This document shows positions 2,911-49,573 of a DNA stretch of 64,000 nucleotides, piece after piece. The notes beneath the pieces were generated by a model. It saw only the letters and a list, made by a program, of their open reading frames with translations, did not search any database and had not been told where the DNA came from. This stretch comes from Isurus oxyrinchus (lineage: Eukaryota): positions 148,800,001 through 148,864,000 of the forward strand of contig JANJGN010000006.1 in NCBI GenBank assembly GCA_026770705.1. The letters run 5' to 3'. The stretch's first letter is position 1. Every line of letters starts with the position of its first letter. Position numbers and translations under genes: made by a program.

Positions 2911-3958
2911 TCGTTTTGTAGCTGGTAATTCTACATAATAATGACATTAAAATGCCCTTTATTTCCTGTTATCTCTCTGGAATTATGCCATTGCTGCCAT
3001 GAAGTTTTGCTTTGCATCATGTGATCCAAATAAGCTCTGCAACTGGCAGTGTTTAATAAAAAAATCATAATATGATCTTCAATGTTAAACTTAATGTGAT
3101 TTATATACTGTCTCTGTTAATACATTTGAAAAACCTGTTGAAAATTGGGGGCTGAATCTTTTTCTAAGCTATATCTGGACAGTACTTTACAAGCAAGTGT
3201 CTTTTTATGCAGCTAAGAGTTCTCAAGGGATAAAGGGCAATGTTATTTTATGCTGCTAGGTTCTCATAACAAACAAATTAAAATTTCAAAATTGCTGAAA
3301 AAAGAAAGTTTGTATTTCATGAAATATTTTAATCTGTGTTTTTCCTTTCTTACTATATTTACTAAATTTAAACTTTTCTGCTTGCTTTTCAAAAGCATTA
3401 ACTCCAAAGCTTTACGCTTCCCACTATTTTGCTGTAACTTTTGCTTGTGTTTTACCATTGATCCAACACTCATATCTTCTCAATCATCTACCTTATTTTC
3501 CCTCTACCCCGGAGAAAACATTGGTCTTCACAGCCCATGTTCTTCCATCCCAAACTTAATATTTAAAATCTATATAAACAAAACAAATTCACTTTGGATA
3601 ACAAACTCATCCAATACACCAATGTCAACAGCTATAACAGCTGTTGGGTGCCATGTAGCCTCATCTGTGCTAACTTTGTTTTTGCACAACATTGTATATT
3701 GTAAGATGTACTGCAGATGTCTATTCTCAAATGTATTAATAGAGACGGTATATAAATCACATTCAGTTTAACATTGAAGATCATATTATGTTATTGGATT
3801 ATGATTTTTTTTATTAAACACTGCCAGTTGCAGAGCTTATTTGGATCACATGATGCAAAGCAAACTTCAAGGCAGCAATGGCATAATTCCAGAGAGGTAA
3901 CGGGAAGTAAAGAGCATTTTAATGTCACTTATATGTAGAATTACCAGCTACAAAACGA
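2911..3958. repeat. Long inverted repeat: arms 2911-3129 and 3727-3958, ~600-bp spacer
   Basis: tcgttttgtagctggtaattctacata...tacatttga is the reverse complement of tcaaatgta...tatgtagaattaccagctacaaaacga, with few substitutions and a ~13-nt insertion in the right arm. Confidence 0.95.
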
Positions 3959-5550
3959 TAGCGAACGATCAGTGCTGAATGGGAGTGTACTGGACGGCGC
4001 AGGAAGCCAAAGTTTGGAAGCTTTGAAAAGAAATGCAGTTTGGGGGATTTATAAAAAACGTTTTGCATTTGCTAAGACACAAAATATCTGGACAGTGTTG
4101 AGTTGCACAAACATACAAGCAGCAGGGCTCGCCCTTGCACGGCTGTTGGCGGGGAAGCCCCTGTCGAGCTGCATGACGTGTAAGGCAGGGTGAAGTGTGT
4201 GTGACCAGAGTTGGGGATTCCCTCTTGGGCTGCACGGTTGTGGGGTGGCTCGCTCGGCAAAGTTTCGTCTCGAACATTGCCTCTTTCCGCCCTGAACCTG
4301 GCGCTAGCGCTTCAGCAGCGAAGAACACTCAGGCAGGAAGTGAAATAAGTCTCAAAATGACGTACGTAAGGTAAGAGGGAAAGAAATATGTGACCCTCCA
4401 GTTTTACCGGGAGCTCCAAAATCGATCTTGTCCAACCCGTTTACTACGACGCAAGAAGCGCTAAATTGTTAAGCCAAATAAAGCCCCACTATTCCCCCGG
4501 ACAAAGCGTTCACTGTTGTAGCGTCGGACTATCCAGAATTGGAGGAGATTAATGTTCTTCCGGGTTCACTCTTCGCTGTGTGTATATTTTTTCTTTCTCT
4601 ATCTCTCACAATACTTAAAGAGACAGCAATATTTTTTTTAAAAAGTCAAGGAAAATTGGACGCATCCTGGAATTTCACGTTTTCAGGTAAACTGAACGTG
4701 CCAAAAAAAAAAGACGAAATCCCATGAAAGTAGTTTGTGGAATAATATAAGTTCGCACGTGAAAGTTGGTTGATGGCAAAAGGGGAGGGGTGGAAAAGTT
4801 TGCAGGTCTTTTTTTTTATGTTGTTCTGAATGCGGGCTGCTGCTTCTCTTCCATGCTCTCCTGAAGGTGCATGTGTGCGAACCCGGACTCAGTGATTGCT
4901 GTCACCTGGCGGGCTGCGAGCTCGGGTTGCGGGCGCGAGGGGGCGTCGCGCGGACCCGGAGCAAGACCCGGACCCCTCCTCGGGGCTCCCTGCAACGCCT
5001 CGGACTCGGACTCGGACACGGGGGGGGCTGTGTACTTAACCCGGGATATGCTGCTGCGGCTGCGGCGGCGACATTGCTTTAAAAGGCAAACCCGTTAGCT
5101 GCCATTCACTAAATCCACTTCGATGCACCCGTACAGCATTCCCTTTATCTCAGTGATGCAGGGCTGAGTTGGGCATATAAAACATGCACAGGAAGGTGTA
5201 TATTGTATATTATTTTAAACGTATGTTTCTCATTGACTTTTTACTCACGGTAAGATGCTTTGGTGGATACAGCGGCGTGATGATAATGACGAGAAAGTGC
5301 ATTTTTTAATCAATTAAAATTTAGTGTAGTAATACGAACCTATTTAGCACGGTTCGTTCAGTTATTTTGTTTTAAGTCGACGGTGAACTTTGCTATTGTA
5401 ATGTGGTCTGAAAGAGTAAATGATTTCCTTCCGCTCGACTTTAAGTGGATCAGGGAATAGAAAGTCGCCATTTTGATTCGTTGTCATTGGCAGTTTTACA
5501 CGTCCGAGGTACTTAAAAGTAAAGCAAGCATTTCGAGAGCATCTGTTTCC
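3950..5550. promoter_or_regulatory. Orphan CpG island / candidate promoter
   Basis: GC- and CpG-rich core at 4860-5080; ETS motif CAGGAAGTG at ~4334-4342; CACGTG at ~4756; TATAAAA at ~5176; + strand donors AAG|GTAAGA (4370) and ACG|GTAAGA (5249). Confidence 0.55.
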
Positions 5551-8500
5551 TGGATGGTTCATGTGTTTTCTTCATGGTTTTCTATCTGTGTACGGATCTG
5601 AACTGATGTAGGAGCCTTTTAGACAGAAGTTGTACTACCAGAAATCATGTGTGTTTCTGCTTTCGTTGAAAAACACATTGGAATTTGTAGGATATTTGTG
5701 GAGGTTGTGGGGGGGGGGGGGGGGGGTTCGGCACTAAATCTGAACGTTTTGCATCGAGTAGATTTCTCTGGACTCTATTTTGAAGAGTTTATTCCTTGGC
5801 AAAGATTGAATTGTTTGGAGTGAGATGTAAATAAAAAAAGTACATTTTAACTTGTTTTTTTTACTGTAGGACGAGGATTTGTTTCTCATTTTAAAAAGGC
5901 ACAAAAAGCACTTTGAAAGGAATATGTTGATATTGCCCATTGTAACTGTATATACTGGCCATCATCTCAAGCTGAGTTCTCCAAAACTGTCCCACATACA
6001 TTTTAAATTTCAGTTAAAGTTCATCAAGATTTTTTTAAAATGAAAACATTTGTTCTAGCCGCCCCCACAATTGAGACAGAAGCATTTAATTCAGGCCAAT
6101 ATAAGTGTGGTTTGCAATCTAAAGCCATGGGCCACCAGCCTTGCACTTGGCTTCTTTGTCTACATGGTCACAATGACTGCACTTGAGAAACAATTCGATG
6201 TACAACACTTTGAATCATTTAGGTATGAAATGTGCTACATAAATTCAAACATCTTGATCATCCCAAATATAACGTCAGTATATAAAGCATCAGGCCTATA
6301 GAGAAACATATTGGGGGTGATTTAAATTTCTTCAAATATATGGGATTTGAAAGATTAGAAATTCAGTTAATACATTCTTTAACCCCAATCTGTAGATGTG
6401 TTTTTTTTTGGAGGGGAAGGGGAATAAAAATGTCACATTGCAGTTTTGACTCTTGATCTTTCAATTAGTAATCTCTTCCATGCTTCTGTTGAGTTACAAT
6501 CTTCCTTTCAAAAATGCAGTCTGTGTATTTCTGTGAAAACAATAACATATACTAATTATGATCTATGTATGTGATTTTTAAAATGTAAACAAAATTGTAT
6601 TTCATTGTTTGGATTTAATTCTGTTAGTGCAAAATGTGAACTCTTCTTACAAAAGTTTTCGTTGGCTTTAGGGATCATATGTACTGTTTAAAATCTGAAC
6701 CAAATTGTAGCTAATGCTGTCTTTGCGCATGAATTGAACATTAAAACATTTGTGGTATTCATGCTTAGTCTAGCCTTGCTGGACTGCCAAAATGACATTG
6801 TATACAGTTGTATTTATTTTGTTTTCATTACTAATTGAATGCATAAAATTTGGGAATATGAATACTCCTGAATAAGAAATTTGAACGTTCTTTACTTGCC
6901 ATGTATTTGCTAATTATAGAGTTTTGGATAAAATGATATTTTGACATCCAAGACACTATGAACAGGTTTGGAAAAGAAAGAATCAAATAATTTCATGTTT
7001 CTTAGGGTCTATCTATAGAAATGTATTAGTTGCCCTAAAATGTTTTTGAGAGAAGGACATCCCAATATATTTCATTAATGTAATTTTCAGTAAATTGGCT
7101 ATAAATTGAATGGTACTTTTCACATTTTGTTCTCTAGTTGAAGATGGAAAATGTGGGACATGAGATCGACCATAGACTAGAGAGGCAATCATAATGTAAA
7201 TAGCAGACTGAAATATTTGGTGTGGTGTGCAATTCTCATTGATACTAGAAATGTTTACTGAATTTTAATAATTCAGTTAACAATTTTTTTTGCCAATTAA
7301 ATGCATTTTCAAAGAAATAAATGTGAACTAGATAATATAGGGATTCAAATTTTTGATATGCAAAACTATTTTGAAAATGGATGGGGTGGGGGAAAATAAG
7401 AGGATGATTTTTGTTACCAAAAAAATATTGAGCGTTTGGAGTTTGACTTCCAAAGAGTGAGCGACAATTGATGTTCACTATGTCAGCCATCTTATTTTTG
7501 TAAGTTTGTATTGGTTAAAAGTCTAGGTCTATAATTTGTCATTTAATTTTTTAAAATGTATTCAGAATTGGTGGTGTACCAATTCATAAATGTAAAAGAA
7601 GCTATATATAAATCTCCCTTTTAAATGGAGGACATGATGGATATATATTTTGATTGAAAAATAAGGTTAATAATATTCAGTTGTATGTAGAAAATAATTG
7701 CACCTCTGTCAGCTTTAGGTACACTTAGCATAGCAATAATGTTTCACCTTGACTAATAAGAATGTTTGTTTTCTTTATTCAGTTAGACATGTGTTTCTGC
7801 AATTATGTTCTATTTTTTGTGTTCTGATATCCAGCATCAGATATTGTTCTTGATCCAAAAATATTGTGGTAATGAATAGAAGTTGTATGAATATGTTTTA
7901 CACTTCAGTTCATTAACAAACTTCAGTAACCAAGTGATTAGACTTAACTGAAGTAAAATATCATGGAGGTGCATTTGTTATAACTCATTAAATTGACCAT
8001 CTATTAATTGTACAAAACCTGCCATATTATAATTGGTAAATATTGGAGACATATTACCTTATTAATGCAAGTAAATGCATACGTAATAGAAGCATACAAT
8101 TGAACTTAATGAACCAGTTCTAGCTGGATAAACATTTAAGCTTAAATGCTGCACTGTTTTTGTTAATATTTGGTGTAGCAGATGTATTCAAATGACAAGT
8201 TTCACTCCAGGGACAGCAGTATATTTTAGAATGCTAAGATGCTTGTATAGTACCTGGTTTATTTAGAAAGATTAAATCACCAAAGGTAAATGACATGTAG
8301 TATAAAGGTTTGGAAATTTGGAGATGAAGTGTTACCAGAACAGTTGTTGATTACTAAATAGCATTTAATGGTTTATATTAACTGCAATTTTTTATTTGTT
8401 TTATAGAAATCTATAGAAATTCTGATTTAATAATGTGCTCAATGGCAAACTTAAAAAAAAACAAAATTCAATTGCAATAAGGTAAATTTCCCCATGGCTC

Positions 8501-11500
8501 ATTTAGCAACGTCATTTAAGTTTAGGGCCAAAACATGCCATTATTTAATCTAATTTTTCTAACTTTTAAGAACTTTTTTTGCATTAACTAACAAATTATA
8601 CTCAAAGTCCAAATCAGCAAAATCAGTTTGTGAAAACACCATGGGGTTCCTTAGCATAGTTTGTAATTAATTCCTTCAAAAAATTCATTCACTTGTAATG
8701 CTAATATAGAAGAGTGATGTATAGATGAAACATTTTCTAGGTGTAATGAATCTGAAAATTTGACCTTTGATACATTAAATAAAAGAAAGTAATCTGTACA
8801 ATATGAATAGGAAAAAATTGTGTAATTCTTTAAAAATGCAAAATGCTTTATCTAATTAGTGATGCAGATATTGTACCTTATCTACAGTTGTGCATTAAAA
8901 CTAATTTAATTGTGTTTATTAAAAAATACTGTTAACTGATTACTGAAAATAATACATTTTTTAGCTTTATAAACTGAAGAGCAAGATCCCCAACAAGAAT
9001 TCCTTGCAATATGAAATGTTGTGTTGTAAATGTAATTCTGCAGTTAGTTCACTGCATCAAGTGGAAGCTGATTTTGTCGACAAATGGTCTTTGCTGCCTG
9101 TGGGCTATGTTTTCCTGAGGTGGAAAGGAAATGGTGTAGCTCATGAGTGTGGTATCTTGTATAGACTGGCACTATACCATTTTCATTTTGAGCAGTGTAT
9201 TTATCTTCTGAAACGCATCACCTCTAGAAAGTAGTGACTATAGGGTGTGTAACAATTAAAATAATTAAATGCTTGATATTTATTAATATTTGCTAAACTT
9301 ATTTAAACCCCAGAAGTTTATTTATTCTGTCAGGCATGGCAATGCAATGCATTAACCTATCCAGGAGTGCTTGAAAATCCAACTAGCAATGCGTCCATAG
9401 AGGTTGCATCACTGTCCTTTCACACTGTGTATACATTTGATGTCCTTGCAAACATTTGATCACACAAATCCACGGTGCAGAATATGAGGCCTTCTAGAAA
9501 TTTAAATTAAGATTATCCATAGATATAAACAAATGACTTTGAGCCTAACTTAATTTACAAAAGTAAGACAAATATCATGGAGGTGCACTTGCTATGTCTT
9601 AATGATTTTGTATGATGTCGCTGACCGGAGTGCTGAATCAAGACAGCTATATTGATCATTACTGAATCTTGCTTATTAATCCATATTTGGAAGTTCCACA
9701 TAGTGTCTGAGAGATGAAAGAATTCCAGTAAGTTGTTTATTTTCAACAAATGCTTACATTTAATGTGTTTAAAATAATGTGAGAAAACTATGTGCAACCA
9801 AAGACCACTGCGACAACATAAGAGTTGTGAATTTTTATGGGGGTGGGGTGAGGAAAGAGAACAGAAAATAATCCAGGAAATTTTAGAACATGATTATTTT
9901 TATTACAAAAAGTGGTGGGCATATTCATTTGTTAAAAGGAGGAATATCACCAAATGATTGGATATCTTGCTATAACCTATGAAATTGTAGATATTGATCC
10001 TAAATTATCCTTCAATTATTAGCAAAGTTTTAAAATTTACCAAAATTACTTCAGTCTGTTCAGATAACTGCAGAATTCCTCATAACCTTGTGAATTAGAT
10101 TGTGTTTATAGTGCTTCTGCCAGTATCAGCCATGTTGTCCAAGAAATTATAACATAGTTGGAAAGGTGAGAATCCATCAATAATGTTAAATATGATCACA
10201 ATTTGTCATGGAAGAACCACAATCATGAAATGGATTTATACCAAAGTGTATATTTTATTATAATACCAATTATAACAATCTGGAAATTAATTGCTCTTTG
10301 TTTAAAGGTATTTGGATTCTTCTAGAATGATTTTAAAAACTGAAAAAAAATTGTTCAAATTGGTCATTGTGTCCCTTTTTATATTTTGTTAATTTTTATT
10401 CATTGCACTAAATACTGGAATAATCTTGAATTGAAAAACATAAAATTGTGTTCTGAGAAAAGTGCATTATTTTTGCATAATTACATCAAGTTAGAACTAG
10501 GGGGAATCTGTCATTTTTTTTTAAATTGAGACTGCATTTGTCTGCCTTAGTTAAAGCATGTAATGGGTTAGCATAGTTACATGCATGCTGATGTCAGTTG
10601 TCATTGAAAATCAGATAGAGCGGCTTATTGACATTCTGCCTCTAAAAATAGAGTCTGAGGATATATGGGATCATCAAATTAAAGGGCATAGGTGACAAAC
10701 CAGGTGGAAGGTCACTGAGCTCATTTTGAACAGGCCAGCCAGTACCAGTTTTCCCTTAGCTGAACAAAGGCTTAATTATTCAGCTTCGAAGCCTGTGATG
10801 ACCAGTCACTGTGGTCAGTGCAGATTGAACTGGCAGGATACATTTCTGCTGGGAACTAACTAATTGATGTCTTAATCTCTGCCTGCATTTTCAAGCACAA
10901 AAAAGACATTAAAAACTGTCTTTCTTTAAAACACTGAAGATCTAACAAGAACAACAAATTTGTAAAAAATGCAGCTTGGAAACATTGTAATTTACACCAT
11001 TAAATCTTTTTCCATGTTTTGTTTATTATTTAGCAACTATTGTGTATATATAACACTTTTTTTGTTCCATATTTTAGTGGTAGGCAGATAAATGCTGAAA
11101 GAAAAAGCACAAATAAAATATGCAGAGAGCTACTTTTTCAACCACACACATTGCAGGAAGTGCATAATTATTGAAATTAATACAACAATAATTTTTATTT
11201 CCTAAAATTTGGGGGTTTAACGCATTGTATATAATATATAAAATTCTGATCCTGTCTAAACCAAATGGTCAGTCTTTTGGAAAGAGCACTATTTTAATCT
11301 GAAATAGGTACTGGCAAATGAATCATCAGTACTTAACCTTTTCTTACTAGCTTTTGTAAACAGAAGTTTACATTGCACATGCCAAACATTTCATCTTTAG
11401 TGGTAATTGAGAATCAGCATATGAGGTATTTTGAATCCCTTAAGCAAGTTGTTTTATAATGGTAAGACAACATGGACAACTCTTAGCTCATTGAAACTTG

Positions 11501-14500
11501 ATCTTTTTGCAAGACAAGCCAGTTGCTAAAACACTTAATTCCACCATGCCAGAGTAAAGGTTTATTCAATAATTCTACAAATGTGAAGAGTGTTGTAGTA
11601 TAGTGGGTGGTCTCCAAAGATACATAAAACTGAGAATCAAAATGTCCAAATACAGATTTTCATACAGATTTATCCCGTGCAATGAAAAACACATAGCTAA
11701 ATTTTAAAATAAATGTATATTAATTTTCCATTTTGGTTATCAATTGTTACAACTTCCAATGCTGATACATTGTCAAAGAATTTGCAGTTCCATTAAAAAA
11801 GTCACAGAAATGGGAAATAAATGTTTTACTTAACTTATTTGTAAAACCTGACTGTAGAATTATAATACACAGACACAAACATATGCAAGCTGTTCATCTC
11901 ACTATTTTTAAAATTATTTTCTTGCCACTCAATGCACATTTTGAAGTCATGTGTCTATTTAGGAAGAATTAGATGTCTGTATTAGCAAAATGGACCACAC
12001 TAACCCATACATAGCTATAAACAATATGATTTATATGTTTTCAGAATTCATTTACAATAACAATGCATGTAAGTAATAACTAGTTAATCTAAAGTGCCAA
12101 ATTGTTTACTGAGATAGAATGGTACTTTAGAAATTATCAATTTTACTACAGGTAAAAGCAAATTCAGCTTAAATATAGATTGGGAAGTGCATGAAGAACC
12201 AGAGTTTCAAAGTTTACATGAGAACGGCAGATATCTGTGCAATAGTAAATTGAAACTCATTTTTTAAAAATAATATATACTATATCAGCAGATTATTAAA
12301 TTTTCCAAAAGTAGAATTCTGATAGCTATCGATGTATAACCACAAGACCATGAACTAGACAAATTGTGAATTAGTTAAATATATTTGCCAATAAAACACA
12401 CACTGATGCATGACAATTGAATTATTGTATCAATAGGAAGGATATATTTTTGTATATACAAATATATAGTAATGTATTATTTAAAATGTTACTTTTTTTC
12501 TACTGTCTTATGCAAAACCCTATGCGTAGTATGTAATGTTATAATGTATCCACATGTTAATATGTAAGCATGTATGAGATAAAATAAGTAACACATACCA
12601 GAGAAGGTTACCTTTTTTTAAATAAAGCATGTAATTGTTTGAAATGTTTATCTTACTGACTAAATACAGTAACACTAAAGTTTGGGAGCTTTTTGTTTCA
12701 AATAATTAATTCTTCCATAATTATAAGAGAACTCAAAGACAGGGGCACCTCATTAGCCAACAGAGTAAATGTTGGAAAATAATTCATCACAAACAATGCA
12801 AGGAAGTTACATTTTTTAAAATCCCATTTAGAAAATACAATAATCACTGGAAATGTATAGATCAATTATTTAACTGAAAAACCACAATCCTTGGGAAGTT
12901 GCATTATGTATTATCAAATGCATAAGTATTCCAATAGACATTCAGGAATTAGAGTTTAGTTTTCAATGTTAATCAAAGTTAATAGGATTGAAGCAATGAA
13001 TCAGATAATCTCATAGAAATGCATTATGCTTCTGACACCAACAAGATGCATTTGTAGAAAATCAACTAAACAACAGCATGGAACGAGTTAAATATTAAAG
13101 TATTCTGAAACAGCCTGCAAGAAATTATGGGTACTAATCACAATTTCCATTAGACATTGATTCTGCATCAAGCTCTGTTGATTGGGGTAAAAAATTTATA
13201 AAAAGTTTCAAAGCTTAATTATATTTAAGATTTTCACCAGAGTAAAAACAAAAATGTTTTATGAACAACCTAAATGCATGGTATTTGTTTTTTTAACATT
13301 TATTCATTAAGCATGACACATGAAAATTCTTTGACTGATATTTTACCATGTTCCTCTAAGTACTTATCGCCCTTTTGCAGCTTTCTTCAGATAACCTCCT
13401 GTAAACATTTAATGCTGACTCTGTTAAAGTAAGTTCAAGTTCCATAGTCGTGACATTCAATTTCTATTTCCTGCAACTTTAAAGAAACTTCCTATCTTTT
13501 ATGATTTCAATCCTTTTAAAGCATAATTCTACTTTACAGAAATTATACTTTTATATAAAGGTCTATCCCGGTAATCATATTTTACTGTTTGTCCTTCTGA
13601 TTTGTCTTTTTATTTTCGATTCCTCCAAGCTACCCTATAATTTGAAGTACTGATTCTAGGCAATTCACATTTTAGATTGTTTTGCCAACAATTGCAACTT
13701 TGGTTTAAAAATTACTTTAAAATAATGTGAATATTAATACTAGTTCCCAATTTATGTCTTGTTTCAAGATTTCCACATTTGGTTATTTCCCCATAAACTG
13801 CTGGTATAATACAATTATTGCATTTTCTATATAATCACATATGATCCCAAAATCACCCCCAAACAACCAATGGTGCACATACGTGAGATATTTACAGTGT
13901 TATCAATTTTGAACACCCACACAACCTTACAGCAAAATAAAATCTAATTGATAAATTTGTTTGATTTCCTAAGGCATCAAAATTTTTAACATTTAAGCCT
14001 TCAACATCAGTACTGCATCTCAAAGAGTTGAAATGCATGCAAGCAGTTAAAATTGCATAAAAGGAGTGATTTCCAAATACTAGTCTAATCTTTGGGGTCA
14101 GATAATTATCAAGTTAGCATTCACACAATATAATTTATTTGAATACCCATGATTAGATTGCATCACTTAAACTCAGTGCCTACTATTCTCTTTTATTTTA
14201 AAGCAGAAAATATACTACCATCCTCAAAAGCTTGGGATGGGAGGAGGCAGTGAAGCAAGATCAATTTGCCTGATTGGTTTGCAGAATCTGTATTTCACTT
14301 ATGTAACCTCACAGACACATTTTAACTTCTGGTAGGATACATTGCATTGTTGCATTATTTATCTTGCATACCAGCAGTCCTGTAGCATAAGAAAACACAG
14401 AGCAATATCCTTTTACATTACTAGTAGCTTTCAAACCTGACTTGATTTTTTTTTTGTCCACAATTCATCACCTTCCTGTTTGATCCAAGACACACTTCTC

Positions 14501-14769
14501 TAGTTTCTGAAACAATGCAGCTGACATTGGCTAGTTTACCATTTTTTACATATGCACCAACATGTTTGCCCAATTAGTTTACCAGTCAATTGTTGCACAA
14601 GCTGATGTTGAATATTTATAATTAAAATCAGAACTGGGGAATTGTGTACTATGGCAACAATATACATTATCTAAATTAAAACCTTGCTTTCTTTTAGGTT
14701 TGTACACAATGATATGTTATAGTTCAATTACTCCCAAATACAAGATGTTGAATTAAATGTTGCAATGTC

Positions 14770-15110
14770 ATCTAATTCATATGTTGGTTCCTAAGTAGCC
14801 ATGAATCTTATGTTTGAGGTACACAAATAATTCCAGGTTTGATCTCCATCTGTGCTATTAATTAGAATAGTAAGGGAGTTAACATAGCGTTAGTACCCCT
14901 GGCATACTATCCAATGATCACTGCTGGAAGTGAAAATGTGGAGATATCACGTGAAGGTAGTGTCATTATTTGGTTGCAATATCTTCAATGGTTGAATAGT
15001 GGTCAATTCTCCCACCTAACAAATCATCACTTGGTTGAAGTGCAGAAGTGTGACTAGCACCAGTGGAACCATGCTGTATCTGGAAGTCGATGCTTCAAAG
15101 AAGGAAATAA
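14770..15110 (+). repeat. Ancient dispersed SINE-like family (other decayed copies near 130-260, 23250-23780, 30870-31560, 52990-53320, 56995-57390, 61350-61850, 63530-63700)
   Basis: Shared motifs recur on both strands: ggtt.gatccc.gtct.tgctgag.tagctgat, tatccaa.ga.c.ctgctggaa, ggctgtgatg, gtggaacc.ta.cccagcaa. Confidence 0.55.
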
Positions 15111-18100
15111 ATTAATGGGGTTGGGGGAAAGAGTGGTGTTAAATTGCTAGACTAATCTGAAGCAAAGTACATTCAATTACAACTGATTCATCTCAGTAAG
15201 TGTTTACTAGGCAAAAATTAGAACAAAACCATTTGTGAAGTTGCAGCTATCTTTGGTGCCTGTAATGCTTCCTAAAACATTGAACTTGGAATTTGCCCCA
15301 GTTTGATTCAAAGGAATAAATGACAAACATACAAGACATAATGATCAAAAAAACTCCATAGAGTTCTCTGCTCCCTAAATCAGGTTGCATGCATTTTTGT
15401 ATTGTGATAAATTATGTATTCTAATAACATATATTCTTCACCATTATTTCTTAAGTCCAAAGAGTCCATCATTACTGTTTACAATGAATAGTAATTTATT
15501 TCTCACCATGATTAAAATCAATAGCAATTTATTTCTCACCACATGGTCTTTTTGGGGGAAAAGTATGAGATAGGGCTAATGCTCTAAGCCTTGCTTTGTG
15601 ATGTATGGTACTTTTTGACTATTGGCAATTTGCATTGGCACTTGAATTTATAATACGAAATCAGCATATGAATAAGAAATAAAAGTCAGATTCAATAACA
15701 GCTTTTTAAAAATATAGAGAAAACTTTTGAAATTAATCTCTCCTTCACTGTGGCTCAAGCTATTTGGAACTTGAATGGCGGATGTCAAGTTGCTTTGCCA
15801 CACTGAATACAACCAAAAAGCCTCAAACAATATCTGTTTCATTGCAAAGGGGTTCTTTTGAAGTGACCATTTTTAATGTCAGCACAGTAGTTAATTTAAT
15901 ATCCTCGATTTATTTAAGTAACGGTTTCTCTTGGCTCGTCTATTGGATTGTACGGTTACCATTTTGGTATAGTTATACATGTTGGGGCATTTAATAGCAT
16001 GTCGGTAATGTTTATGTAGGAAACAGGCAAGCGCAGTAAAACCACCCTGACACCCGCCCACAGTACAATACTTGTGTATTTATCTCCTTTTACAGAATGG
16101 GTAAACGTCGCCATAGAAACGGGAGCACCAGGATGTAGAAGATTTAAAGGGGCTATAATCTTTAACGCGATAATTGATTTTTTTTTAAAATCGGCTTTTT
16201 GCGGCATTGTTCTGCTGTACAATCGTACTGAATTACTTTGAAGAGTTCATTATGAAAGGATAGTTTAGAATCTGCACAGCAATGTTATGTTTTGCCAAGA
16301 AGATAGTCAAAGGTTCGGGTTTTTGCCTGGGAGACACAGAGAATCAACCCTGGTAGCCACCAAAATAATATTAGAGCCATATAATTGAGAATCGCATTCA
16401 AAAAAAAATGATACTAACAAAGTAACCTTGTCATTTAAAAGCTCGCACATTCAGTAACGGAAACGCCATGTCTCCGTCCTGCCCTCGCATGTTGAATGCT
16501 AAGTTAAATGTGGTAAAATAATGAATCGTTCTTTTACTTCACCATTCACGATTGCAGGTCCAATTCGGTATCTGAATGTCAGAACCTGGGAAAGCTATTT
16601 ACTATTGATGCAACTATTAAAGAACATTTTAAGCATGGTGGATTTAATTTGTGAGGGGGGGGGGGGGGGGGGGGAGGGTAGGGTTTGACTGGGAATAAAA
16701 CCAGCCGGGACTTGCGTACTACGGGGGAGAAGCTGTGCGATAGTCACACTTAATTCCCCCGACCCCTGTGAGGTACCGAGGAAATCGTCAGTGTACTGTT
16801 TTAATAAATATTATCAGATATTTCCAGCATTTCCCCTAAGCAAAATGATGACGCCGCGGGAAAGGGTGTTTCAACACGTTTCGAATTACGTTTCAAGTGC
16901 TCCTCATCTGGTTGCGAATTCGGTAGATGTTTCTTCCCAGTAAATTGGAAGATTTATTTAAATATTATGAAGCTATTTATTGTAACTGATATTAAACGAG
17001 GTCGGCCGTAAACGTGCAAGAGAGGCTGCTTAATGTGCACCGCCCATTGAACCACGGTCTCCCTAGCTGATCTTTAGAGAGCAGGTTAGTTTTCCTTTTT
17101 ACCAATTGTTGTTAAATAGCTTTCGCTCGGCCGAGCTGTGACCCTCCACAACTCGGCCTGGGCTGCCAAATGCCCCGGCCCCCAGCCCCCAAATTACCTG
17201 AGAGCATCAGCAGTGCTGAGTGAGTGTGTTGTGTGTGGGGAGGGGAGAACCCCTTCCTGTATTTGTTCTCAACAGCTGCAAAACTCGATTTGTACACAGG
17301 AAAGTGGAGGTGGGTGCGGGGTGGAAGGCGAAACGATAACCTTCTAAACCGCACCTGACTTGCTTCCGGCTGATCCAATGGCTGTGGAAAAGCAGACGTC
17401 GCTTGTTACCAGGTGAGTTCCTGTATACAGCATTCTTTAAATAGCCCCGCAGAAACCCGAGCCCTCGGACTGATCACACAGCGCCGTCTATCTCGCCAAT
17501 TGCATTGTGGCACTACAGACACTTCACAATGGGCAACAGAATTGCACTGTGGGTTCATACTACAGCTCTTTATAAGCAAGTCCGCTCTTTTGAAGAGTGG
17601 ACTGGCAGTAGACTTTTTTTTTAATGTTGAGATCTGTACAGTTGATCGCTATAGGCAAATTTGTTCATGTATTCGACTTTGACCAGGTACAATCTGGAAA
17701 ACCCAACAAAAAATTATTCTGCCAATATACAATAAAAAGCGGCAACTCAACCATATAAGCAAAATGTATTTGTATATTTAAGAGTATGCTAAGTAAGCAG
17801 ATAAGGGAGAAAGAAATGGGATGTTTTGTAGGGTGCGATGAAGGCGGCACTTGTATGGAGCCTAAACTTGCAAGGACCTGTTGGCCCGAATGATCTGTTC
17901 CTGTGCTGTAAATGCTGCTTTAATACGCACAAATCGTGCGTATGCAAGCCTCTAAGAGACTGGAGTAGTTCAATGGGACCAATGGCATAACCATTGCTTT
18001 TCATGCAAAAATGAGCCCCTTCTGTTCTTTGCACAGAAGAATCGGCTCAAGTCGATGAGTAAGTACTGGAACGCAGGGAGTTCTTGTGTTACACTCTGCT

Positions 18101-18562
18101 GGTAAAACACAATCCATTATTAACAGACTGAAAGAATATACACCTCGCTTTTACAGCAGGGAAACAAATCCGTACTTCTTTCAGTCAAAAATGTGACTGG
18201 AATGTTTGCTACACGGTGTTGTATCGGCAGCGGCCGATAGACACAAGCCACAGCATTAGAATTTACTGCAACAATGAATGGGGAAATGCCTGGCTGTCCT
18301 AGAGACTGCAACCGTGTTTGGGAATGCTCCTGTGAGAAGCTTGATTTGCACTGAACATATTTATTTCTGGTACAGTTTAATCCTTTTGGCTGTCTAGTGA
18401 GAAAGGTAATCGAAACACTCAGAAATCTTTAGGGATGCAATGAGACGATAAGATTCAGTGTCTCCAAACAATGACCACATTTTTTCATTGAAAAAGTTGT
18501 GAACTGTGTACAAATATTTATTGTCCTTTGATGTCAAACTGAGCAGACGTGTTAATTTCCAG

Positions 18563-18614
18563 GTCTCGGAGACGAGGATGAGCTCATTCAAGATGGTTTC
18601 CTGTCCAGGCTCAG
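18563..18614 (+). CDS. LIN28B: Candidate distal alternative LIN28B exon (VSETR-MSSFKMVSCPGS-G|), ATG at 18578
   Basis: Acceptor ttaatttccag| and donor TCAG|gttggt. ATG to donor is 37 nt (phase 1), matching exon 2. The peptide resembles the recalled human alternative LIN28B N-terminus (..KRMRSFNQVSSAPG|GASKG). Confidence 0.6.
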
Positions 18615-20454
18615 GTTGGTTGTTCTCTTTTTTTAAAAAAAAAAGCTTGCGAAATATATGTATATATGTGTTTTTGTGGCATTGAAGCACGGTATAATCT
18701 GCATTTCTTAATTAATGGTGCTAAGACAAAAGCACTGACTTAGCAAAATGTAATGTAATGACCCTTTAAGGAGATAACGAAATTGAGGAATCATAAGTTT
18801 TGCTAAGTAAAATGGAAAAAAAATTTTACCCATTCGGCATCATTGCTCATCACTTTTGCAAAAATGATGTCGTTAGGGACACTTTTGGGAGGGGGGAGGG
18901 GGGGAATGAGTTCTGAAGCCCAGTATAAAACTTCAGCAAACATCACAGTTGTGACAATTGATTCAATCAACTTCTGCGCAGTTGGTAAACTCCTGTGGCT
19001 TCTTGGGGGTCGTTTGTGATTTATTTTAAACAAGCATCTTAGATCCACGAAGATAAAAGCAAAATACTGCGGATGCTGGAAACCTGAAACAAAAACTTTT
19101 TCCCAGCTATTTTTTATCTTAGATCCACAACTGTACCAAGGGATATTGTGTAAGGGCCTTGTGATTGGGAAGCAGTTTCGATTCAACTGAAGATGTTGAC
19201 CAACTACTGTTTGTATGCTTAGGTACTCGACTAAGCTCACCCTCTGAAGGCATAACGTCCTTAATGTTTTTCTTCATTTTTTAAAAAAAAAATTTCGCTG
19301 ATGAAGCTTGAAAATGTGAAGTTCATTTAGGAAACGGCTTGTTAGGGACCGATTTTTGCTACAAATTTGTGCCATCAGCCTGAGCTGTGTCCGCAACCAA
19401 ACATTTGAGGTTACTCTGTTGTTGGGTTATAGCCCGTATCTGGTACCTTTTTAAAAAGAGAAAAAAACAAATCAGCTGTGGAAAACAGCTTTGCCCAGTT
19501 CGACAAACTGAGAGCGGAGACTCGATGGAACATAGCACTTTGCGGAAGAATGTTTCCGATGGGCTGATGTGGTAGCCAAAGTTGGAGAAGAATCTTCTCC
19601 AGCTCATTTTTTATATGATGGACTTGGTGTAGCTTTCGTCCTAATAACTTTCCAATATCACTGTATAGCGGGGGGGGGGGGGGGGGGGGGAGAGGGAGTG
19701 GAACTTGTGGTTCCCTTTAAAAAACCACCCCAGCTTCCCGTCTTCTCTCCCCTCCCGATTCTGCTTTACAATGTTATGATGAGATTCGCATCTTAAGAGT
19801 CAGGTTAAACCGAACGAACTTTGTCCAGCCGTGTGTGTGTTAGAAATCGAGCAAAAAAAAAAAACTGGCAAATAAGCGGAAATGTGAAAACTGGTGTGCA
19901 GGAGTGAAAGTGACCCCCCTCCTCTACAGTGCTCGCTTTTTTTTTTCTTTCTGACACGTATTAACCGCGGCCGCTGATAACGAAAAGGTCAAATCACTGC
20001 GCGGAGTGGAGTTGCTATTACATGTGTGTGTCTGTGGAGCAAGGGCTCGCCGCTCGGTTCGGATATCCTCGACACACACACACACACACACACGAACGGT
20101 CCAAGTCAGCCGGGCCAGCGCTGTTTTAAAAACTCTTAATGCACGGGAGGGAGTTGTATTATTAGTTACCACCCCCCCCCCCCCCAAAAAAAAATATACA
20201 TATACAGAATGAAAACAAATGGGCTTTCCCCACATCCCCACTGTCTGTAGTTTTCTCATCTGTTTCGTGTACGCACAACTGCACGGGTAGTATTCTCAGC
20301 ACTCCGGCTTACTAAGGGATGCGGAACACACAGAAGGTGCCCCTTACTTATCTGACGGTTTGCAGTGGTTTTGCTGCCGGCTGGCCGTGGTCTTCAGTGG
20401 ACACTCGGAGTCCATCGTGTGGGCTCGATTCCAGCAGCATTCACTCGCTCGTCT

Positions 20455-20525
20455 TCTCTCTCTCTCTCCACCCCCCACCCCCCGTGTGTGTGTGTGTGTG
20501 TGTGTGTCTCTCTCTCTCTTTCTCA
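20455..20525 (+). repeat. Compound (CT)n/(GT)n microsatellite; a (CA)n run also lies at ~20072-20093
   Basis: Visible dinucleotide runs inside the CpG-rich domain. Confidence 0.9.
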
Positions 20526-23500
20526 CTGACTCGGTCACTCTCTGCTTCGGCTTCCACCACCAATCGCAGAACACTGACAGCACCACCTGCCAGAAAGGGA
20601 TTTCCTCGAGGCGCGTCATCCGATCGACACAGTCCTAAAGAACCAGGAGCCGTCACACGTCTCACTTTGAACGGCGACGAAGAGTCTCGTTCTACAAGGA
20701 TGATTGGCTGATGGAGGCTTTCACACGGATTGAGGGCAAGCAGGGTTCTCAACTAGTCCCACCCTCTTCTGGGTTTTTTTTCCCTCTCTTTTGGACTAAT
20801 CCCAATGTCAGCAAATCAAAAGCGAAGTGCTTCTGTCTCCTCCACCTCACACACCCCCCCCCCCCCCCCCCCCTCAGCTCCTTTAAGAAAGGTGGAAAAT
20901 ACTATTTTGTGTGTTTAATGTTGGAAATTGGACGGGGGCAGGAGTTATCTTTTGAAATATTCCGAATAATTCAGCCGCCTCAAATTTCTGTAGCGTTAGT
21001 ACAGCTGTTGGTTTATTTTCCTCACTTTTTTTCTTTAAAAATGGTTACCCCTAAATCAAGCCAGCAGAAATTAGTTCATGACCAAGAAGGTCACCAATTT
21101 AGCTTCCATTCCTGCCTGGCACTTTTTGTGCTTTGAAGATAAATTGCCAACCAGGCTCCATGATTTAGGGAACCCCCAGAGATGAATTTCCCAGATGGGC
21201 ATGAAAGCAATATATTAGTACACCACTGTCAGAACTGCAAAACCATGACTAATGTTCACACTTGGGTTTACCCCAGATGGTGAGTTGTTGATCATGCTCT
21301 TCCTATTGACCATCACACCAAACAATTCAAAGATGCCTCCATGATCAAAGGGAGGGAATTGCCTGGCGTTCAACCTTTAACCACTGTTCAGAACCCTGAA
21401 ATGTCCGTGCTGTCTGACGATGGAACAGCATTGATCTTCAGCATCACCCAGATCAATGCACACCTTCCAGCAGAATGCAAATTAAAAAGTTCATTTGAAG
21501 AGGACAGTCTTCTGTTGATGATGGAGCAGCACTGAAGATGATTAATTAATGTGGTGCAATCCTCCTCACCCCACCGAAGGTGACAATAGAAGCTGTCATT
21601 TGTTGAGGTGTTTACCGAGGGAGACAAATATAATTTTGCAGAGTATTTCAGGTATTTGTAACATTTATTTGACTTCCAGTTGTAGATGTAGTCAAAATTT
21701 GGTTTCTAAGCTTTTGGTCGATTTTATAATCCAACAACAGAAATGGCGTTAGTTCAAATGATTCATAAAAAAGTCTGAATTAAGTATTCTAATATGGTAA
21801 TATGATTCTGGATAGTTCCAACAGATTGCTGTTCCGTACAATGAGACATATTTTATGCAAATCCTGGACGAAGACCTCCCAAGACTTGATAGTAATAGAA
21901 AAATTGTGTTTTATTTGTGGTGAAAGTTGTTAAACATTTGACTGTTAGTCTGAAGTACAGCTTCACAAATGCAATAAAATACTGCATATTTCCATAGTCT
22001 GTGTATATTCAATACCTAAACTGGGATAATTAATAGGCCCTAATTTAAATAAAACTACTAGTTGCCTATCAACAGTAATTATTACAGTGTACAATTCAAA
22101 CAGGGGGTGGAGGTAGCTACACCACAGAACATCTATGAAGTGGCAATTTGAAGTGTATATATTAACTGGATTCCAAATCTATACTTGCAAGGTGAAATGG
22201 AATCCTACTTTTAATCTTGATGACTGGACATGTAATTATATTGAGTTAATGTTGACTAAGAATGCAAATATAGTTTAAGTACATTCAGAAACAGGCAAAT
22301 TCAATTAATGAACCTCAGTTTGATATTTCACAAGCAGAGAGAGTATACTTTATATGTGTGTGAGAGATTGCATTTTTAAGAATGTAAACATTGCTCTGCT
22401 GGCTGTTGCTGCACTAACATCCAAGTTTACTGCACATGCTCTGTTGCAAAATGAAGAAGTAGCTGAAGCTCAATGGAACATGTGTATCTGCTCTTTGTAG
22501 AACTTCTCTGCCAACCTGAACCATCCTCTTTTGTCTATTTGTAGTGAAGTGATCAGTTTTGTGGCTAAGTTTGGGTAGTTTCCTAATTCGGATTCAAGTC
22601 TCAATTATGTATAGTTTGGGTCATGTTAATGTTTGCTAATCATTTTTGCTTCTTTTGCGGGTGGGAGTGGGCTCTGGCAGTGGAATTCCAATGATTTATA
22701 CATTTTAAAGTCCAATTATTTCAGTGGATTTTAAAATTATTTCTCCAGACAAATTTGGATTGGTTTTTAGTGGGCCTGTTTTATCCAATGTTTATGTTAA
22801 CCACTTCTCTTTCACTCATATTCTATGGTAGTCACACCCCAGTCACTCACTCTCTGGAAGTGCTGACTCATTGTGACATGGTTGCAAGGGTGTCAGCAAG
22901 CATCTGTCTGGTATCGTTTACCAAAGAGACCATTCTTCCTGTATAAGGTTAAATAGTCATGTCAGCAGTCTGTTTGACCATAGAGTATTTACCTGATGAA
23001 CACTGAGTCAGAAGCAGAGCCAGAAACATTAATTCCATACCTGTTAAGGTTGCTGAGACCAATTTCAGTTTGCTTATGAGAGTTGCAGCTGAGCTGAAGT
23101 AACTCAGCACTAACAAGAGACCATAGTGATCCAAATGGCTCATTATCACACCAGGTGCTGTATTTACCCAGTAGTGGGCTTCCAGATGTTCTTTCACAAC
23201 TTCCACCCATATCATAGCGCATAAATCCAGCTCCTGCTATGTTACTTAGCCCTAAAGACCAAAAAGGTGCATGTTTAATCCTGGTCTATGCTAGCATAGT
23301 TGCTCTCCACTGGGACTCTCTTCAGGGACTGCAGTATTCTCAGGATGGGAAAATATCTAGTGTTGCCACTCCAGATAATTATGCACTAACATCCCACTTG
23401 TATGGAGGTGGCCCAGTATAAAGGAAGCAAAACAAGGCAGTTTCCTCCCTGCTGAATACTATTCTGTAATCTCTGGATACAAGTTAGAAAAGCATAAGGC

Positions 23501-33900: not shown

Positions 33901-34539
33901 TTTATACAGCACACAGATAACATTAACTCGTGTAGTGTCTGATCATTGTTTGCTGAAATGAATCCTATAAATAACAATACCATTAACACTGATCAGAATT
34001 AAGTTTACATTCGACAGATTTTCTTGTAACAAACATCTACATTGTGTCCATGCGTGAAAAGGATCCTGAAGTAGCAAAATAATCAAAAAGACCAAATAAA
34101 ATTGCGAGTTCTCCCCACACACTGGTTAGTACCGTTGTCTCTATATCATGGGTCCAACAGAAATGAAAGAGGTGCAGCAGTGAACACTTTTCATTGACAG
34201 CTTGCAGCATCTTTAAAAAGTGTTGAGCACTGTACATTTTCCCCAAATAGAACGAAAGAACAAGAGTGAGAAAACAGCCTGTCCTGCTTTACAAGAGTGA
34301 CGACATTTCAAAATTTTAGCTGTAAAGAGCTGGACGCCCTGAGGTCATGAAAGGTGCTGCATAAATGCAGGTCGTTTTTTTCTGGAATGATAAAATGCAG
34401 GATTTTCTTCGTGATTCCTGCGAGATGATGTCAGTCTTCATTGTGACGTTTTAAGGTATTTTATTTGCCTCGGGTAGAAGATTATTTCTTCCCTGGTCTG
34501 CTGCCATGTACCTTTTGGAAAGCTGGTTAAAAATAGAAT

Positions 34540-34945
34540 TGGGAGAGCCTTGGAGAGCCTCTTAGCTGGGAAATGGTAACGGAATAGGACAAAATGCAAA
34601 AAGGGAGAGGGAAACAATGCCGTTTTAACACTTTTAAAAGGCTACATAGATATCAAGATATGTAAGGCATATCAAAAGGGCGCTTATTTAAGATGCTAAA
34701 AATTAAAAGGGAAGTGGGAAAACATTTATTTTTGCGGAGAGATCTATAGAATATGCAATTCTCTCCCGTGATCTGCGGTAAAGTCAATAAGCTATTTTAA
34801 AGGGGAATTAGAAAGTTACTTGGCGAAATTAAAGTTTATGGAGAGCCTGCAAATAAAACGGTGAGATTGGGTGAGGGGCTCATGTGGAGAAAAAGACCAG
34901 TAATGATTGGATGGGCCAAATGGTCTGTTTCTTTGCTATAGCGTA
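34540..34945 (+). mobile_element. Decayed CR1-like 3' fragment
   Basis: Ends in gggctcatgtggagaaaaagaccag..gatgggccaaatggtctgtttctttgcta, a CR1-type tail. Confidence 0.5.
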
Positions 34946-34949
34946 TGAC

Positions 34950-36200
34950 AAGTTCTGGGATTTACTAATAAATCCGGTTTAGCTAAAAACGATGTAACTA
35001 TCAGAGTTTGAATGTTTCAGGCTGTGGTTCACTGTTTTGTGAGCTTGGTGCAGCGCAGTTGAAATCATACAGCAATCCGTCAGCTGTCTGGTATCGCTTC
35101 TGAACTGAGAACCACTCACTTCCCAGTTCTTTATCCGCGTTCTCTGGCACATGTAACCCGTTTCTCAGAGGGAGGCGACCAGTTTGATTTTTTTTTTTAC
35201 ACTCGTTTTCTCGCTGCCTTTGTGGGAATCCTTTTGTGTATGTTTCACACAAAACGGCCAAGATCAGGGAATCGCTGGCAGGCTGCCGCGTACTCTCACG
35301 TCAGCCTTCAGGGTGTCGGGCACGCCCAGGTAGGAACAGCTTCGCGCCCATCTAATTGATAAAGAGCTGGCGCAACATAATCAAACTATGAAGACTTAGG
35401 AAAAATACGTTCCCTTTCGTTCACTGGACGACGATTGCACACTGTGCTCCGAAGTCCCCCAAGCCTGGAAGCTCCCAGGTTTGTTTTTAATCCGTGCTGA
35501 ATTAGCCAATACTCGAGGCAACGACGAGGACCTGAAAGGGTCTTTGGTGGCTCAAGACGAGGGAAGAAGGAAATCCGTTCCTGCTCTTAATTGCTGTCCA
35601 AATGGGAACCACCCCCCTCCCCCCATCCTAATGTTTGTGGTGCATTCTACAGTCAAACATCGAACTCAACAGGCTAAGACGTAAACGGTACATATTAGGG
35701 GACTGTTAATGTGAGAGTTATAACTTTTGGGAGAGGATGATCGAGTAACAACTGTTGGGGGGAGGGGGGAGAGGGGGGAGGAGGTTGGGAATCAGCATTT
35801 TGTTGGAGTGGTGTTGCAAATGCTTTCCTCAGGTCTCTGTCTGTGAATATCCTTTGCGTCATTTCCTGATTTCCCAGTAAGAAACGAACTTTTTTTTTAA
35901 ATAAAAAGACACAAACACATGAAAATCTTCTGTTTCACGTATGTTATAAATCATTTAAAAATAATAATGCCGACAGACTCGTTCGCTTCTGGAAACATTC
36001 AAATAATTGGTGCAGAAGAAAGGCAAATCGATTTGCTTTATTGTACCCAAACCCTGGAGTTAATTGTAACTTCTGACACACACAGTTATGCTTCGTTAAA
36101 CACAAACAAAAACTATCGCAGTAAAATTTGACAGTTCTTGTTACTATGTTATAACTAGGGCGGAGTTATCCGCCCCGTTCTCTTTTTATCTCTATAGTTA
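34950..36200. promoter_or_regulatory. Small CpG-rich island, candidate enhancer or alternative promoter
   Basis: Local CpG enrichment, CRE-like TCACGTCA at ~35296, donor-like CAG|GTAGGA at 35329. Confidence 0.35.
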
Positions 36201-37099
36201 AACATAAACATGTAAGATATTGCAGAACATGTCTTCTTTCACCCAAGGTGGATTTCATAACTATCACCTACCTTCATGGATAATTATGGCTCCTCGTTGC
36301 TCATTCTCAAAAAGACTTTTATTTCACATGCATCTTATTACTGCACAACGAATTATTTTGATTTGAAGGCGGCTGTCTAAACTTATCCTCGTTCAAAAAA
36401 CAGCAATTGGTATGGATTATTTTCATATTGGTAGGTACATTAGTATCAGTGTTAGATTTATATGCACAAAAGGGCCGAAACATACAGGAGACCCATCTCC
36501 ACTAACACCACTGTACTGCAAGACCAAAGGCATCCAGCTCAAGTTGCCAACTCTGTACTGAAGCTTCCAATCCATTCCCCGTCCCCAGCTACTTGCTTGG
36601 ACAGAACCCTATGATCTGACACGCTGGTGTCCTCTTTGATCATAAACTGAGCTTCAACCTAATTTTATAAAATGTAGCTTGCTCTTTCCATCTCCTATGA
36701 CATCATACTCATCTGCCCTGATCTCATCCCCAACACTATTTAAGCCCTTATCCATATCTTCATAATCTCTAACATGCTTAACGTTCTCTCCAGCTCCATT
36801 GTACACAACTTTATACTTGCCCAAAATGTCACCACTTTGTCCCCATTCTATGAATAATGCTTGTGAGACTACATTTATTGCTCATTCCTAGCTGCCCTGA
36901 GAAGCTAGTGATGGACTTCCTTGAATTGATTGGATTATAGTGCTCTCATGATGGTTAGCTAAGACCAGCAATGATGAAGAATAATTATATGCACAAGGGA
37001 AGATAGTGAGTAATTTACAGGGAAACTTGAAGGCAATAATGGATTATAACATTTTCTGGGCTTGTCCTTGAAGAAGTTACAACAAAGACAGAGGTATAT

Positions 37100-41549: not shown

Positions 41550-41660
41550 CAAAAACAGAAACAGAAATACCTGGAAAAACTCAGCAGCTCTGGCAGCATC
41601 GGTGGAAAAGAGCACAATTGACGTTTCGAGTCCTCATGACCCTTCAACAGAACTAAGTAA
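41550..41660 (-). mobile_element. Penelope-like-element-derived short repeat with minimal hammerhead core
   Basis: Minus strand reads tagtt-CTGTTGA-a-gggtc-atgag-gactc-GAAAC-GTC-aattg. Same family as the copies at 25.6, 56.3 and 59.4 kb. Confidence 0.65.
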
Positions 41661-42129
41661 AAATAGGAAAGGGGTGAAATATAAGCTGGTTTAAGTGGAG
41701 GGGGTTGAATTAATCTTTTATCCGGGGAATTAGTTGTTTGAGGGACAGATGCTGGGATCCAGAATTACATTTCTACTTTCAATCCCTATCGCACTGATGC
41801 CGACAAATTGGAAGATTTTGTCCCCCCCCCCCCCCCCCCCCCCCCGAAACCACGGTTTCCAGGTGCCAGTTTGGAAATTGAATCATGCCTGGCCTGTGTC
41901 CTCGGGGCTCAGCCTTACACTGCAGCTACCTTCTCCGGCCCATTCCCCAAGTGTGATCGGCAGACCGGGGTTATACTGCTGGTTACTATGTCCAGATGGC
42001 GCAAAAGGTCAGGCACAAAGGAGTAAGAATGTTTCCTCGGGGGTGGGGTGCAGATATCCTCTTCCTGGGACATTCATTGCTCCGGAACCAATATAAATAT
42101 CCCATGCACGTTTTTCGAAATTTCCACCT

Positions 42130-42700
42130 GGCCCCTGTACCAAATATCAACACGACAGCTCATGTTACATGAGAAAGACGCTAGTGTCAGGAAAATAGAT
42201 CGGAATTGTTGGTGTAAAGGACAGGGTAACGGGAATACACTGAAACTATAAGTGACATCTGTTTTAGCTTCTTGAGTTCGTGTGTAAACCATATTGGAAA
42301 CCTTGTGTTTATATTGGCTATTTAATTACAGTTTTGTACATGGTGTGTGTCACTGGGGTATGAGGCGTTGTAAATTGACATGGATAAACTGCAACCTAGC
42401 GCCCACAGTCCAGAGTACCGTCTCGCTGAAACGAAGGACACTGTGGCTGGTCCTACACTTGCCCTCAGTATTGTTCTCATCGATATGGAGCTCCCCCCAG
42501 TTTGCCGTTTCGGCCCGTTCATTGGGTCATTTCTTCATCAGGCCAACGTGCCCGAAAAGGGCAGCATGGAGGCCGGCTTGTAATCACCATACGGCGTATT
42601 GTGGAAGGCGTTTTATGCAATTCGCTCTGGATTCGGCTCAAATAAAAAAAAATCGCAAAACGTTTACCAACTTTGTTCTAAACTGTGATGTGACTGCTAC
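42130..42700 (+). mobile_element. Very ancient CR1-like reverse-transcriptase relic
   Basis: ORF 42294-42800 contains HWGMRRCKLTWINCNL..QSTV, SSPQFAVSARSLGHFFI and FMQFALDSAQI, collinear with CR1 HGIRG.LL.WI.NWL..RQRV, GVPQGSVLGPLLF.IFI and ISKFADDTKI. Upstream gacagctcatgttaca resembles KTANVT. Confidence 0.5.
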
Positions 42701-48714: not shown

Positions 48715-48718
48715 CAAC

Positions 48719-49562: not shown

Positions 49563-49573
49563 CAACTGTCCAG

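Follow-up and report, generated by a model that had tools for sequence, protein, structure and literature searches.

LIN28B acts on developmental timing via let-7 and is an oncogene, and the human distal LIN28B transcript is regarded as a textbook example of a cancer isoform made by a transposon. The question raised by this locus of Isurus oxyrinchus is whether a 52-nt segment located 31 kb upstream of LIN28B exon 2 is an exon of a distal transcript in a shark, and whether it is the same exon that mammals possess. All positions refer to the window, i.e., the whole 64-kb stretch of DNA that was analysed. We consider it highly probable that the segment at 18563-18614 (+) forms the second exon in a distal LIN28B transcript, which is joined upstream to an exon ending at 4370, as the transcripts of a relative indicate, is likely joined downstream to exon 2, and likely supplies an in-frame start codon for a protein with the whole cold-shock domain.

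The identity of the gene is provided by the common exon 2 (49574-49755, +), which contains the start of the cold-shock domain. Its peptide is identical at 60 of 60 residues to the LIN28B of Cetorhinus maximus and Carcharodon carcharias and at 54-57 of 60 to two further shark LIN28B proteins, compared with 29-32 of 60 for three shark LIN28A proteins; therefore, the locus is LIN28B, from a shark of the lamniform group. Exons 3 and 4 produced no tblastn match in the 64-kb window and are located beyond it. Two proximal first exons precede exon 2, and both end in phase 1: the canonical exon of the MAE type, whose 10-nt coding part lies at 48719-48728 (+), and a third start exon of the MGSV type, with a LIN28A-like start, at 49222-49252 (+), which matches catshark models (10/10, E 1.5e-7). 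Because starts of the MAE and MGSV types are common to LIN28A and LIN28B, the pair likely predates the duplication of these genes. The CpG-rich domain around the canonical promoter spans 12 kb, and a stretch at 48589-48660 (+), which contains an upstream ATG above the canonical start, matches the extension of a lemur model (E 6e-8); models of loris, moray and perch-like fish have similar extensions, and the stretch may represent a conserved 5′ UTR element or uORF.

The 52-nt segment is preceded by TTTCCAG and followed by GTTGGT, and it contains five codons, an ATG at 18578-18580, 11 further codons and one base, which leaves a phase-1 donor. This phase is identical to that of the coding part of the canonical first exon, and joining the segment to the acceptor at 49574 places it in frame with exon 2. 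A second in-frame ATG, at 18593, has A at -3 and G at +4. The first-pass annotation had described a 52-nt segment bounded by AG and GT, with a phase-1 donor, the phase of canonical exon 1 and a frame that fits 49574, and all of these features were confirmed in the sequence. A search of the + strand from 1 to 48500 found 545 segments of 40-70 nt with the same AG..GT boundaries, an open ATG and phase 1, and nine of the 545 were at least as strong as the 52-nt exon when pyrimidines and donor matches were roughly counted. Therefore, the pattern by itself proves nothing, and homology carries the case. The same annotation had placed the exon in a separate CpG-rich domain, which is broadly accurate for 16001-21000 (observed/expected CpG of 0.81 at 16001-17500 and 0.72 at 19501-21000), but the exon itself lies in a weaker part (18301-18900; GC 0.37, CpG o/e 0.55). 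This domain may contain more first exons, with the candidate 9/9 donor after 17412 as an example. Further CpG-rich domains occur between the exon and exon 2 at 34001-36500 (o/e 0.70) and 39501-51500 (o/e 0.74), and a short, very high-copy repeat fragment is located at 19046-19096, 430 nt 3′ of the exon.

Evidence for use of the segment as an internal coding exon is provided by an acceptor joint in contigs, by tblastn matches and by a peptide profile. A search with exon 2 returned 253 proteins, of which the best 120 were taken, with cluster members added; all models of the relatives are predictions. Among the 21 named cartilaginous fish species retrieved, nine have LIN28B models in which a distal N-terminus is joined to exon 2, namely Heterodontus, two Chiloscyllium, Rhincodon, two Scyliorhinus, Pristiophorus, Rhinoraja and the chimaera Callorhinchus. 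Among the models retrieved, the other 12 species have no distal form; these species include the closest two, Cetorhinus and Carcharodon, whose retrieved models comprise the 250-aa MAE form alone, unlike the 259-aa isoforms of the former group. The N-termini of the relatives map by tblastn to 18533-18616 with E values from 1e-11 to 2e-4. The 259-aa isoforms in RefSeq and UniRef, for example those of Heterodontus (XP_067875238.1), Scyliorhinus torazame (XP_072355960.1), Chiloscyllium punctatum (XP_072409010.1) and Callorhinchus (XP_042189369.1), have the same 12-residue N-terminus joined to exon 2, and the peptide of the window exon is identical to those of Heterodontus and Scyliorhinus at 11 of the 12 residues. 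The distal isoform is thus already present in the RefSeq models of many sharks, and the exon is not new to the databases.

The upstream side of the exon was examined by mapping contigs over 4000-21500. Runs X1-X3, which were guessed to be RNA (share 0.05-0.07), represent one sample of one relative, about 90% alike, available as contigs only and without a tissue record; run X4 is of the DNA type. The contigs of two of the three RNA-type runs, X1 and X2, join 4368 to 18561 with a GT..AG cut at +2, which corresponds to a joint between 4370 and 18563, and the short side of this joint measures 31 nt. The joint is absent from the contigs of X3 and from those of X4, and the latter are unbroken across 4000-5717 and 18100-19069, i.e., across both splice sites. 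The spliced contigs extend upstream to 4197 in X1 (4197-4368) and to 4122 in X2 (4122-4368), and the intron between the two exons is 14,192 nt (14.2 kb) in length. Furthermore, model P0137 of the bamboo shark has an upstream extension that matches 4173-4356 (E 4e-18), and the model then enters the 52-nt exon. The joint in the transcript contigs therefore makes the 52-nt exon internal and places a first exon within a CpG island at 4.0-5.5 kb. The description of the segment in the first-pass annotation as a distal alternative N-terminal exon is accurate in that it is a real alternative N-terminal coding exon, but it is not the first exon, and the exon upstream of it ends at 4370.

This distal first exon (4122-4370, +) extends at least as far upstream as 4122 and has a donor, AAG/GTAAGA, after 4370; it is single copy in the window and conserved with the bamboo shark. 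The surrounding CpG island (4001-5500) has a GC content of 0.47 and a CpG o/e of 0.96 vs. 0.15 in 6001-15500. Judging from the position of the contigs, the CpG content and a TATA-like element, we consider this island to be likely the distal promoter, 45 kb above exon 2. The putative TATA element (4050-4056, +) lies about 70 nt above the longest contig end and is the only TATAAA in 3900-4200, and 49 such motifs occur on the + strand of the whole window. About 90 nt above this element is the end (3958) of an inverted repeat (2911-3132 / 3724-3958) of about 236 nt with arms 88% alike, which resembles a miniature DNA transposon, and the stretch at about 1170-2850 appears by eye to be LINE-like and decayed. 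The segment at 4552-4569 (+) matches six of six residues of the N-terminus of the gar LIN28B model P0195 (E 0.005 with 145 queries); this model runs on into the distal exon, X2 and X3 contigs cover 4351-4591, and the segment is a candidate for another conserved start exon of this island. Finally, a 74-nt piece at 20563-20636, which adjoins a CCAAT at 20560 within the CpG-rich domain around the 52-nt exon, is found under longer X1 and X2 contigs and could be part of an antisense or other transcript, or a repeat.

A comparable N-terminus was found in placentals, marsupials, echidna, birds, turtles, lizards, frogs, a caecilian and lungfish, and also in gar, bichir, eel and a mormyrid. The distance between the Met and exon 2 amounts to 11 residues in bony vertebrates and to 12 in cartilaginous fish; exon boundaries outside the window were read from proteins. 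Five comparable residues precede the Met in all nine taxa whose models reach upstream (four cartilaginous taxa and five further bony lineages, with turtle/bird/lizard, Xenopus, gar and bichir counted), and the lead codons read ILQK in the chimaera vs. VLQK in Xenopus and human. The likeness between the shark and bony-vertebrate peptides is weak. A profile was constructed from 21 bony-vertebrate peptides; of the 24 chosen, those of tinamou, caecilian and sterlet were omitted because the exon-2 boundary was not found or was shifted. In a six-frame scan, the 52-nt exon ranked second among 127,894 positions and first on the + strand, and the match begins precisely at the acceptor at 18563. The top match, at 61901 on the minus strand in intron 2 (21.1 vs. 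16.4), was without support and was taken as chance. When 396 splice-bounded candidates of 49-70 nt were compared, the exon came first with a score of 16.4, which is also held by a longer candidate with the same donor, and the next unrelated candidate scored 7.2. The 11-mer of the exon scored 12.9; of 20,000 random Met peptides, 0.11% scored as high (P about 0.001). The peptides of sterlet and perch-like fish score at or below zero on this profile, which indicates that the peptide sequence itself is loosely constrained. Metagenomes were also scanned for the exon in host DNA of birds or reptiles; the 130 pattern matches came down to a single locus, on the reverse strand of a bacterial gene, and this was discarded.

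No convincing distal-type start was found among 115 proteins from a LIN28A search (106 new and nine earlier, a few of them LIN28B) and 13 cartilaginous-fish LIN28A proteins. The top profile score in the LIN28A search, 10.3, is that of an unrelated lizard extension, and 5.8% of random peptides reach a score of 5; the alternative basic N-termini of LIN28A in bamboo shark and skates (P0408, P0394, P0414 and P0416, one of 11 residues) score 0.1-6.9, including 4.1 and 6.9. With the exon present in holocephalans, elasmobranchs, sarcopterygians and actinopterygians, its origin would predate the split of cartilaginous and bony fish, and on these sequence comparisons we consider it likely that the exon is the same as the mammalian one and as old as jawed vertebrates. 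The comparison of ages covers jawed vertebrates, the protein set containing no lamprey or hagfish protein. The suggestion of the first-pass annotation that the exon matches the human one and may be older than this split is accordingly supported by the models of relatives, the profile ranks and the VLQK match.

According to the mechanism that we propose, the promoter in the 4.0-5.5 kb island would start the RNA, and the 14,192-nt intron would be removed, as seen in the contigs of the relative. The 31-kb intron would then be removed, skipping both proximal first exons; the gene models of relatives, the fitting phase and frame and human peptides make this splice, from 18614 to 49574, likely. Translation from 18578 would replace three residues with 12 and produce the protein that is 259 aa in relatives. 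Skipping of the exon would leave 49678, inside the cold-shock domain, as the first in-frame ATG and would generate a 212-aa form; 212-aa models that start at this Met exist in three sharks (Stegostoma and two Scyliorhinus). An additional ATG at 4357 in the first exon is predicted to act in either of two ways. With the donor after 4370, it would start an overlapping uORF (4357-4370, +) of 10 codons that would dampen translation; frame analysis gives this ATG an A at -3, and its stop codon, TGA at 18579-18581, overlaps the main ATG. If a tandem donor after 4365, 5 nt upstream of the observed one, were used instead, the same ATG would be in frame and would extend the protein by eight residues, and exactly such an eight-residue extension is found in the whale-shark model P0141. 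In human, an Alu provides a new start and an AUG ahead of the likely orthologous exon.

Several other explanations of these data should be considered. A chance AG..GT segment could have been propagated through the databases by annotation transfer, since gene models can be copied across species and 545 such segments exist in 1-48500. However, the spliced GT..AG joint in the transcript contigs hits precisely its acceptor and is absent from the DNA-type run, and the peptide is preserved from chimaera through skate to sharks; this explanation is largely refuted, and we regard it as extremely improbable. It is also very unlikely, if somewhat less so, that the shark and bony-vertebrate exons have independent origins and resemble each other through chance and composition. 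The peptides are short and Ser-rich, their lengths differ by one codon, and the six-frame scan ranked one chance site above the exon, but the gene, the side, the phase and the five-codon lead are all identical, and both the ILQK/VLQK correspondence and the first rank among 396 candidates argue for a common origin. A promoter within the surrounding 16-21 kb CpG domain, for example with a first exon ending at 17412, is a possibility that we hold tentatively, and as an additional start rather than the sole one. The CpG content at 16001-17500 is high, within 3500-48700 a 9/9 donor occurs only after 17412, where a CCAAT lies at 17375, and both contigs end 31 nt into the exon, as if at a branch point. 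Moreover, Heterodontus, Chiloscyllium and Scyliorhinus have several transcripts per identical protein (at least four in several sharks), which suggests several 5′ UTRs. Against this additional start, the sole joint into 18563, among the 15 of 43 joints listed, comes from 4370, and the upstream part of the bamboo-shark model matches 4173-4356. The contigs of X1-X3 cover zero positions in the bin 16848-17431, which holds the donor after 17412; this gap carries no weight, and divergence of the relative may account for it.

The role of the exon in translation has also been weighed. If the uORF from 4357 captured the ribosomes, the 52-nt exon would serve as 5′ UTR in sharks, with little protein from 18578. 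The A at -3 of this uORF and the overlap of its TGA with the main ATG, given the 4370 donor, would favor such an outcome. Nevertheless, we find it unlikely: the Met and the open frame are kept in all taxa retrieved, the second ATG at 18593 is in frame and has A at -3 and G at +4, other 5′ exons may be without the uORF, and mass-spectrometry support for some peptide of the human transcript is reported (PMC13405042). A different proposal is that the added peptide itself is functional, for example in protein stability, in localisation or as a phosphorylation site, and that the exon was retained for this reason. According to a review citing Guo 2018, the added N-terminal residues raise the stability of human LIN28B-TST, the start of which is located about 20 kb upstream (PMC10296230); in addition, the peptide is rich in Ser, Lys and Arg in most taxa and is near-invariant across placental mammals. 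Conservation across jawed vertebrates, however, is limited to the Met, the length and the composition, leave-one-out scores are 5.7-18.6 in ray-finned fish peptides and -0.2 in sterlet, and the stability data concern the human protein, possibly with Alu-derived residues. We therefore regard an own function of the peptide as conceivable but rather doubtful. The idea of a mitochondrial-targeting peptide was dropped because acidic residues are present in the shark, bichir, lizard and frog peptides. Our preferred reading remains that of a coding exon whose main contribution is an in-frame start codon.

The human transcript named LIN28B-TST, AluJb-LIN28B or LIN28B-neoTST resembles the shark transcript in its distal start, an intron of about 13.3 kb, an exon reading VLQK...QVSSAP, the joint to exon 2 and a longer N-terminus, and the human isoform is described as restricted to tumours or placenta (PMC10363060, PMC13405042, PMC10760525). 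The difference is that in human a primate Alu contains both the start and the first AUG, whereas the shark gene is without an Alu and its first-exon ATG is out of frame with the observed donor. We compared the human sequence by means of the junction and epitopes in a published Table S1. This table lists the LIN28B-neoTST junction from chr6:104937116 to 104950461 (+) and four HLA-A*11:01 epitopes, one of which has six residues followed by VLQK and three of which span QVSSAP-GGASK (PMC13405042). The six residues and the 16 codons of the bony-vertebrate exon add up to 22, on the inference that the acceptor precedes the V, and the 14,192-nt shark intron is similar in length to the human one, which may be a chance likeness. 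The primer of Guo in the TE exon reads M-S-H-R, as does the first epitope, which places the first human AUG on the Alu side (PMC10363060). Of the 457 proteins compared, the 11-mer QVSSAP-GGASK is unchanged in 18 and the 9-mer in 22, all of them non-primate mammals. It is likely that the 52-nt exon is orthologous to the exon read by LIN28B-TST/AluJb-LIN28B, and 16 of the 22 "unannotated" human tumour residues and three of the four listed epitopes probably derive from the old exon.

Published descriptions of the human isoform differ. A 258-aa isoform has been assigned to the Alu start in a preprint that is self-contradictory on cell state (10.1101/2025.04.29.651292), and 258 aa is the length of mammalian distal-type proteins; LIN28B-TST has also been listed as full-length with a TE-derived 5′ UTR, i.e., with an unchanged N-terminus (PMC13709765). 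No AluJb was reported in the LIN28B transcripts of pluripotent cells (PMC8450112), and the tumour-specific TE interpretation is repeated elsewhere (PMC7779070, PMC12963367). Our search of the N-terminal region returned no human protein, and no human 258-aa member is among the cluster members listed (40 of 161 in the likely cluster). Distal-type N-termini are present in the rodent models of rat (P0078) and wood mouse (P0104). Mouse has no Alu. The mouse isoform Lin28b-202 (ENSMUST00000214555.1) likewise carries additional exons upstream and uses an alternative promoter, with no AluJb in this species; this long isoform from an upstream promoter rises in the ageing hippocampus (10.1101/2023.10.17.562606), an adult tissue, and presumably contains the orthologous exon. 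The view of the first-pass annotation that the isoform occurs mainly in tumour and fetal contexts does not agree with the transcript in human placenta (PMC10363060) or the long isoform in adult mouse hippocampus (10.1101/2023.10.17.562606). The short LIN28B isoform, which binds pre-let-7 without blocking its processing (PMC6029494), is N-terminally shortened, and skipping of the 52-nt exon would similarly force a start within the cold-shock domain; the 212-aa shark models or an exon-skipped RNA may correspond to this isoform.

The presence of the exon in public gene models and the human distal isoform are already known. Our literature search found no paper stating that the exon is conserved to sharks or where most of the "unannotated" residues originate, most subscription papers being outside this search; Guo 2018, Jang 2019 and supplements may discuss conservation. 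The available text of one description of the human and placental transcript contains no wording on conservation ("conserv-") (PMC10363060). As a speculative model, and one that we consider less likely than not to hold in full, we suggest that AluJb-LIN28B arose when an Alu inserted into a distal transcription unit of the age of jawed vertebrates. Already in place would have been the coding exon with its AUG and, 13-14 kb upstream of it, the position of the first exon, and 16 of the 22 residues and three of the four HLA-A*11:01 epitopes would be ancient self. The original control would have been a splice switch, consisting of the tandem donors 5 nt apart and of exon skipping, with three alternative products: the full protein damped by the uORF, the extended protein, and a form truncated in the cold-shock domain that antagonises let-7 blocking.

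Sharks and bony fish split more than 400 million years ago. If most of the distal N-terminus is ancient, then a normal role of the isoform in many vertebrates follows. The human distal transcript is under test as a source of vaccine epitopes (PMC13405042), and the epitopes at the junction of this exon with exon 2 would likely be self peptides wherever the distal LIN28B transcript is made, with the new part limited to the residues on the Alu side. The isoform would thereby become testable in mouse, chick, frog and catshark.
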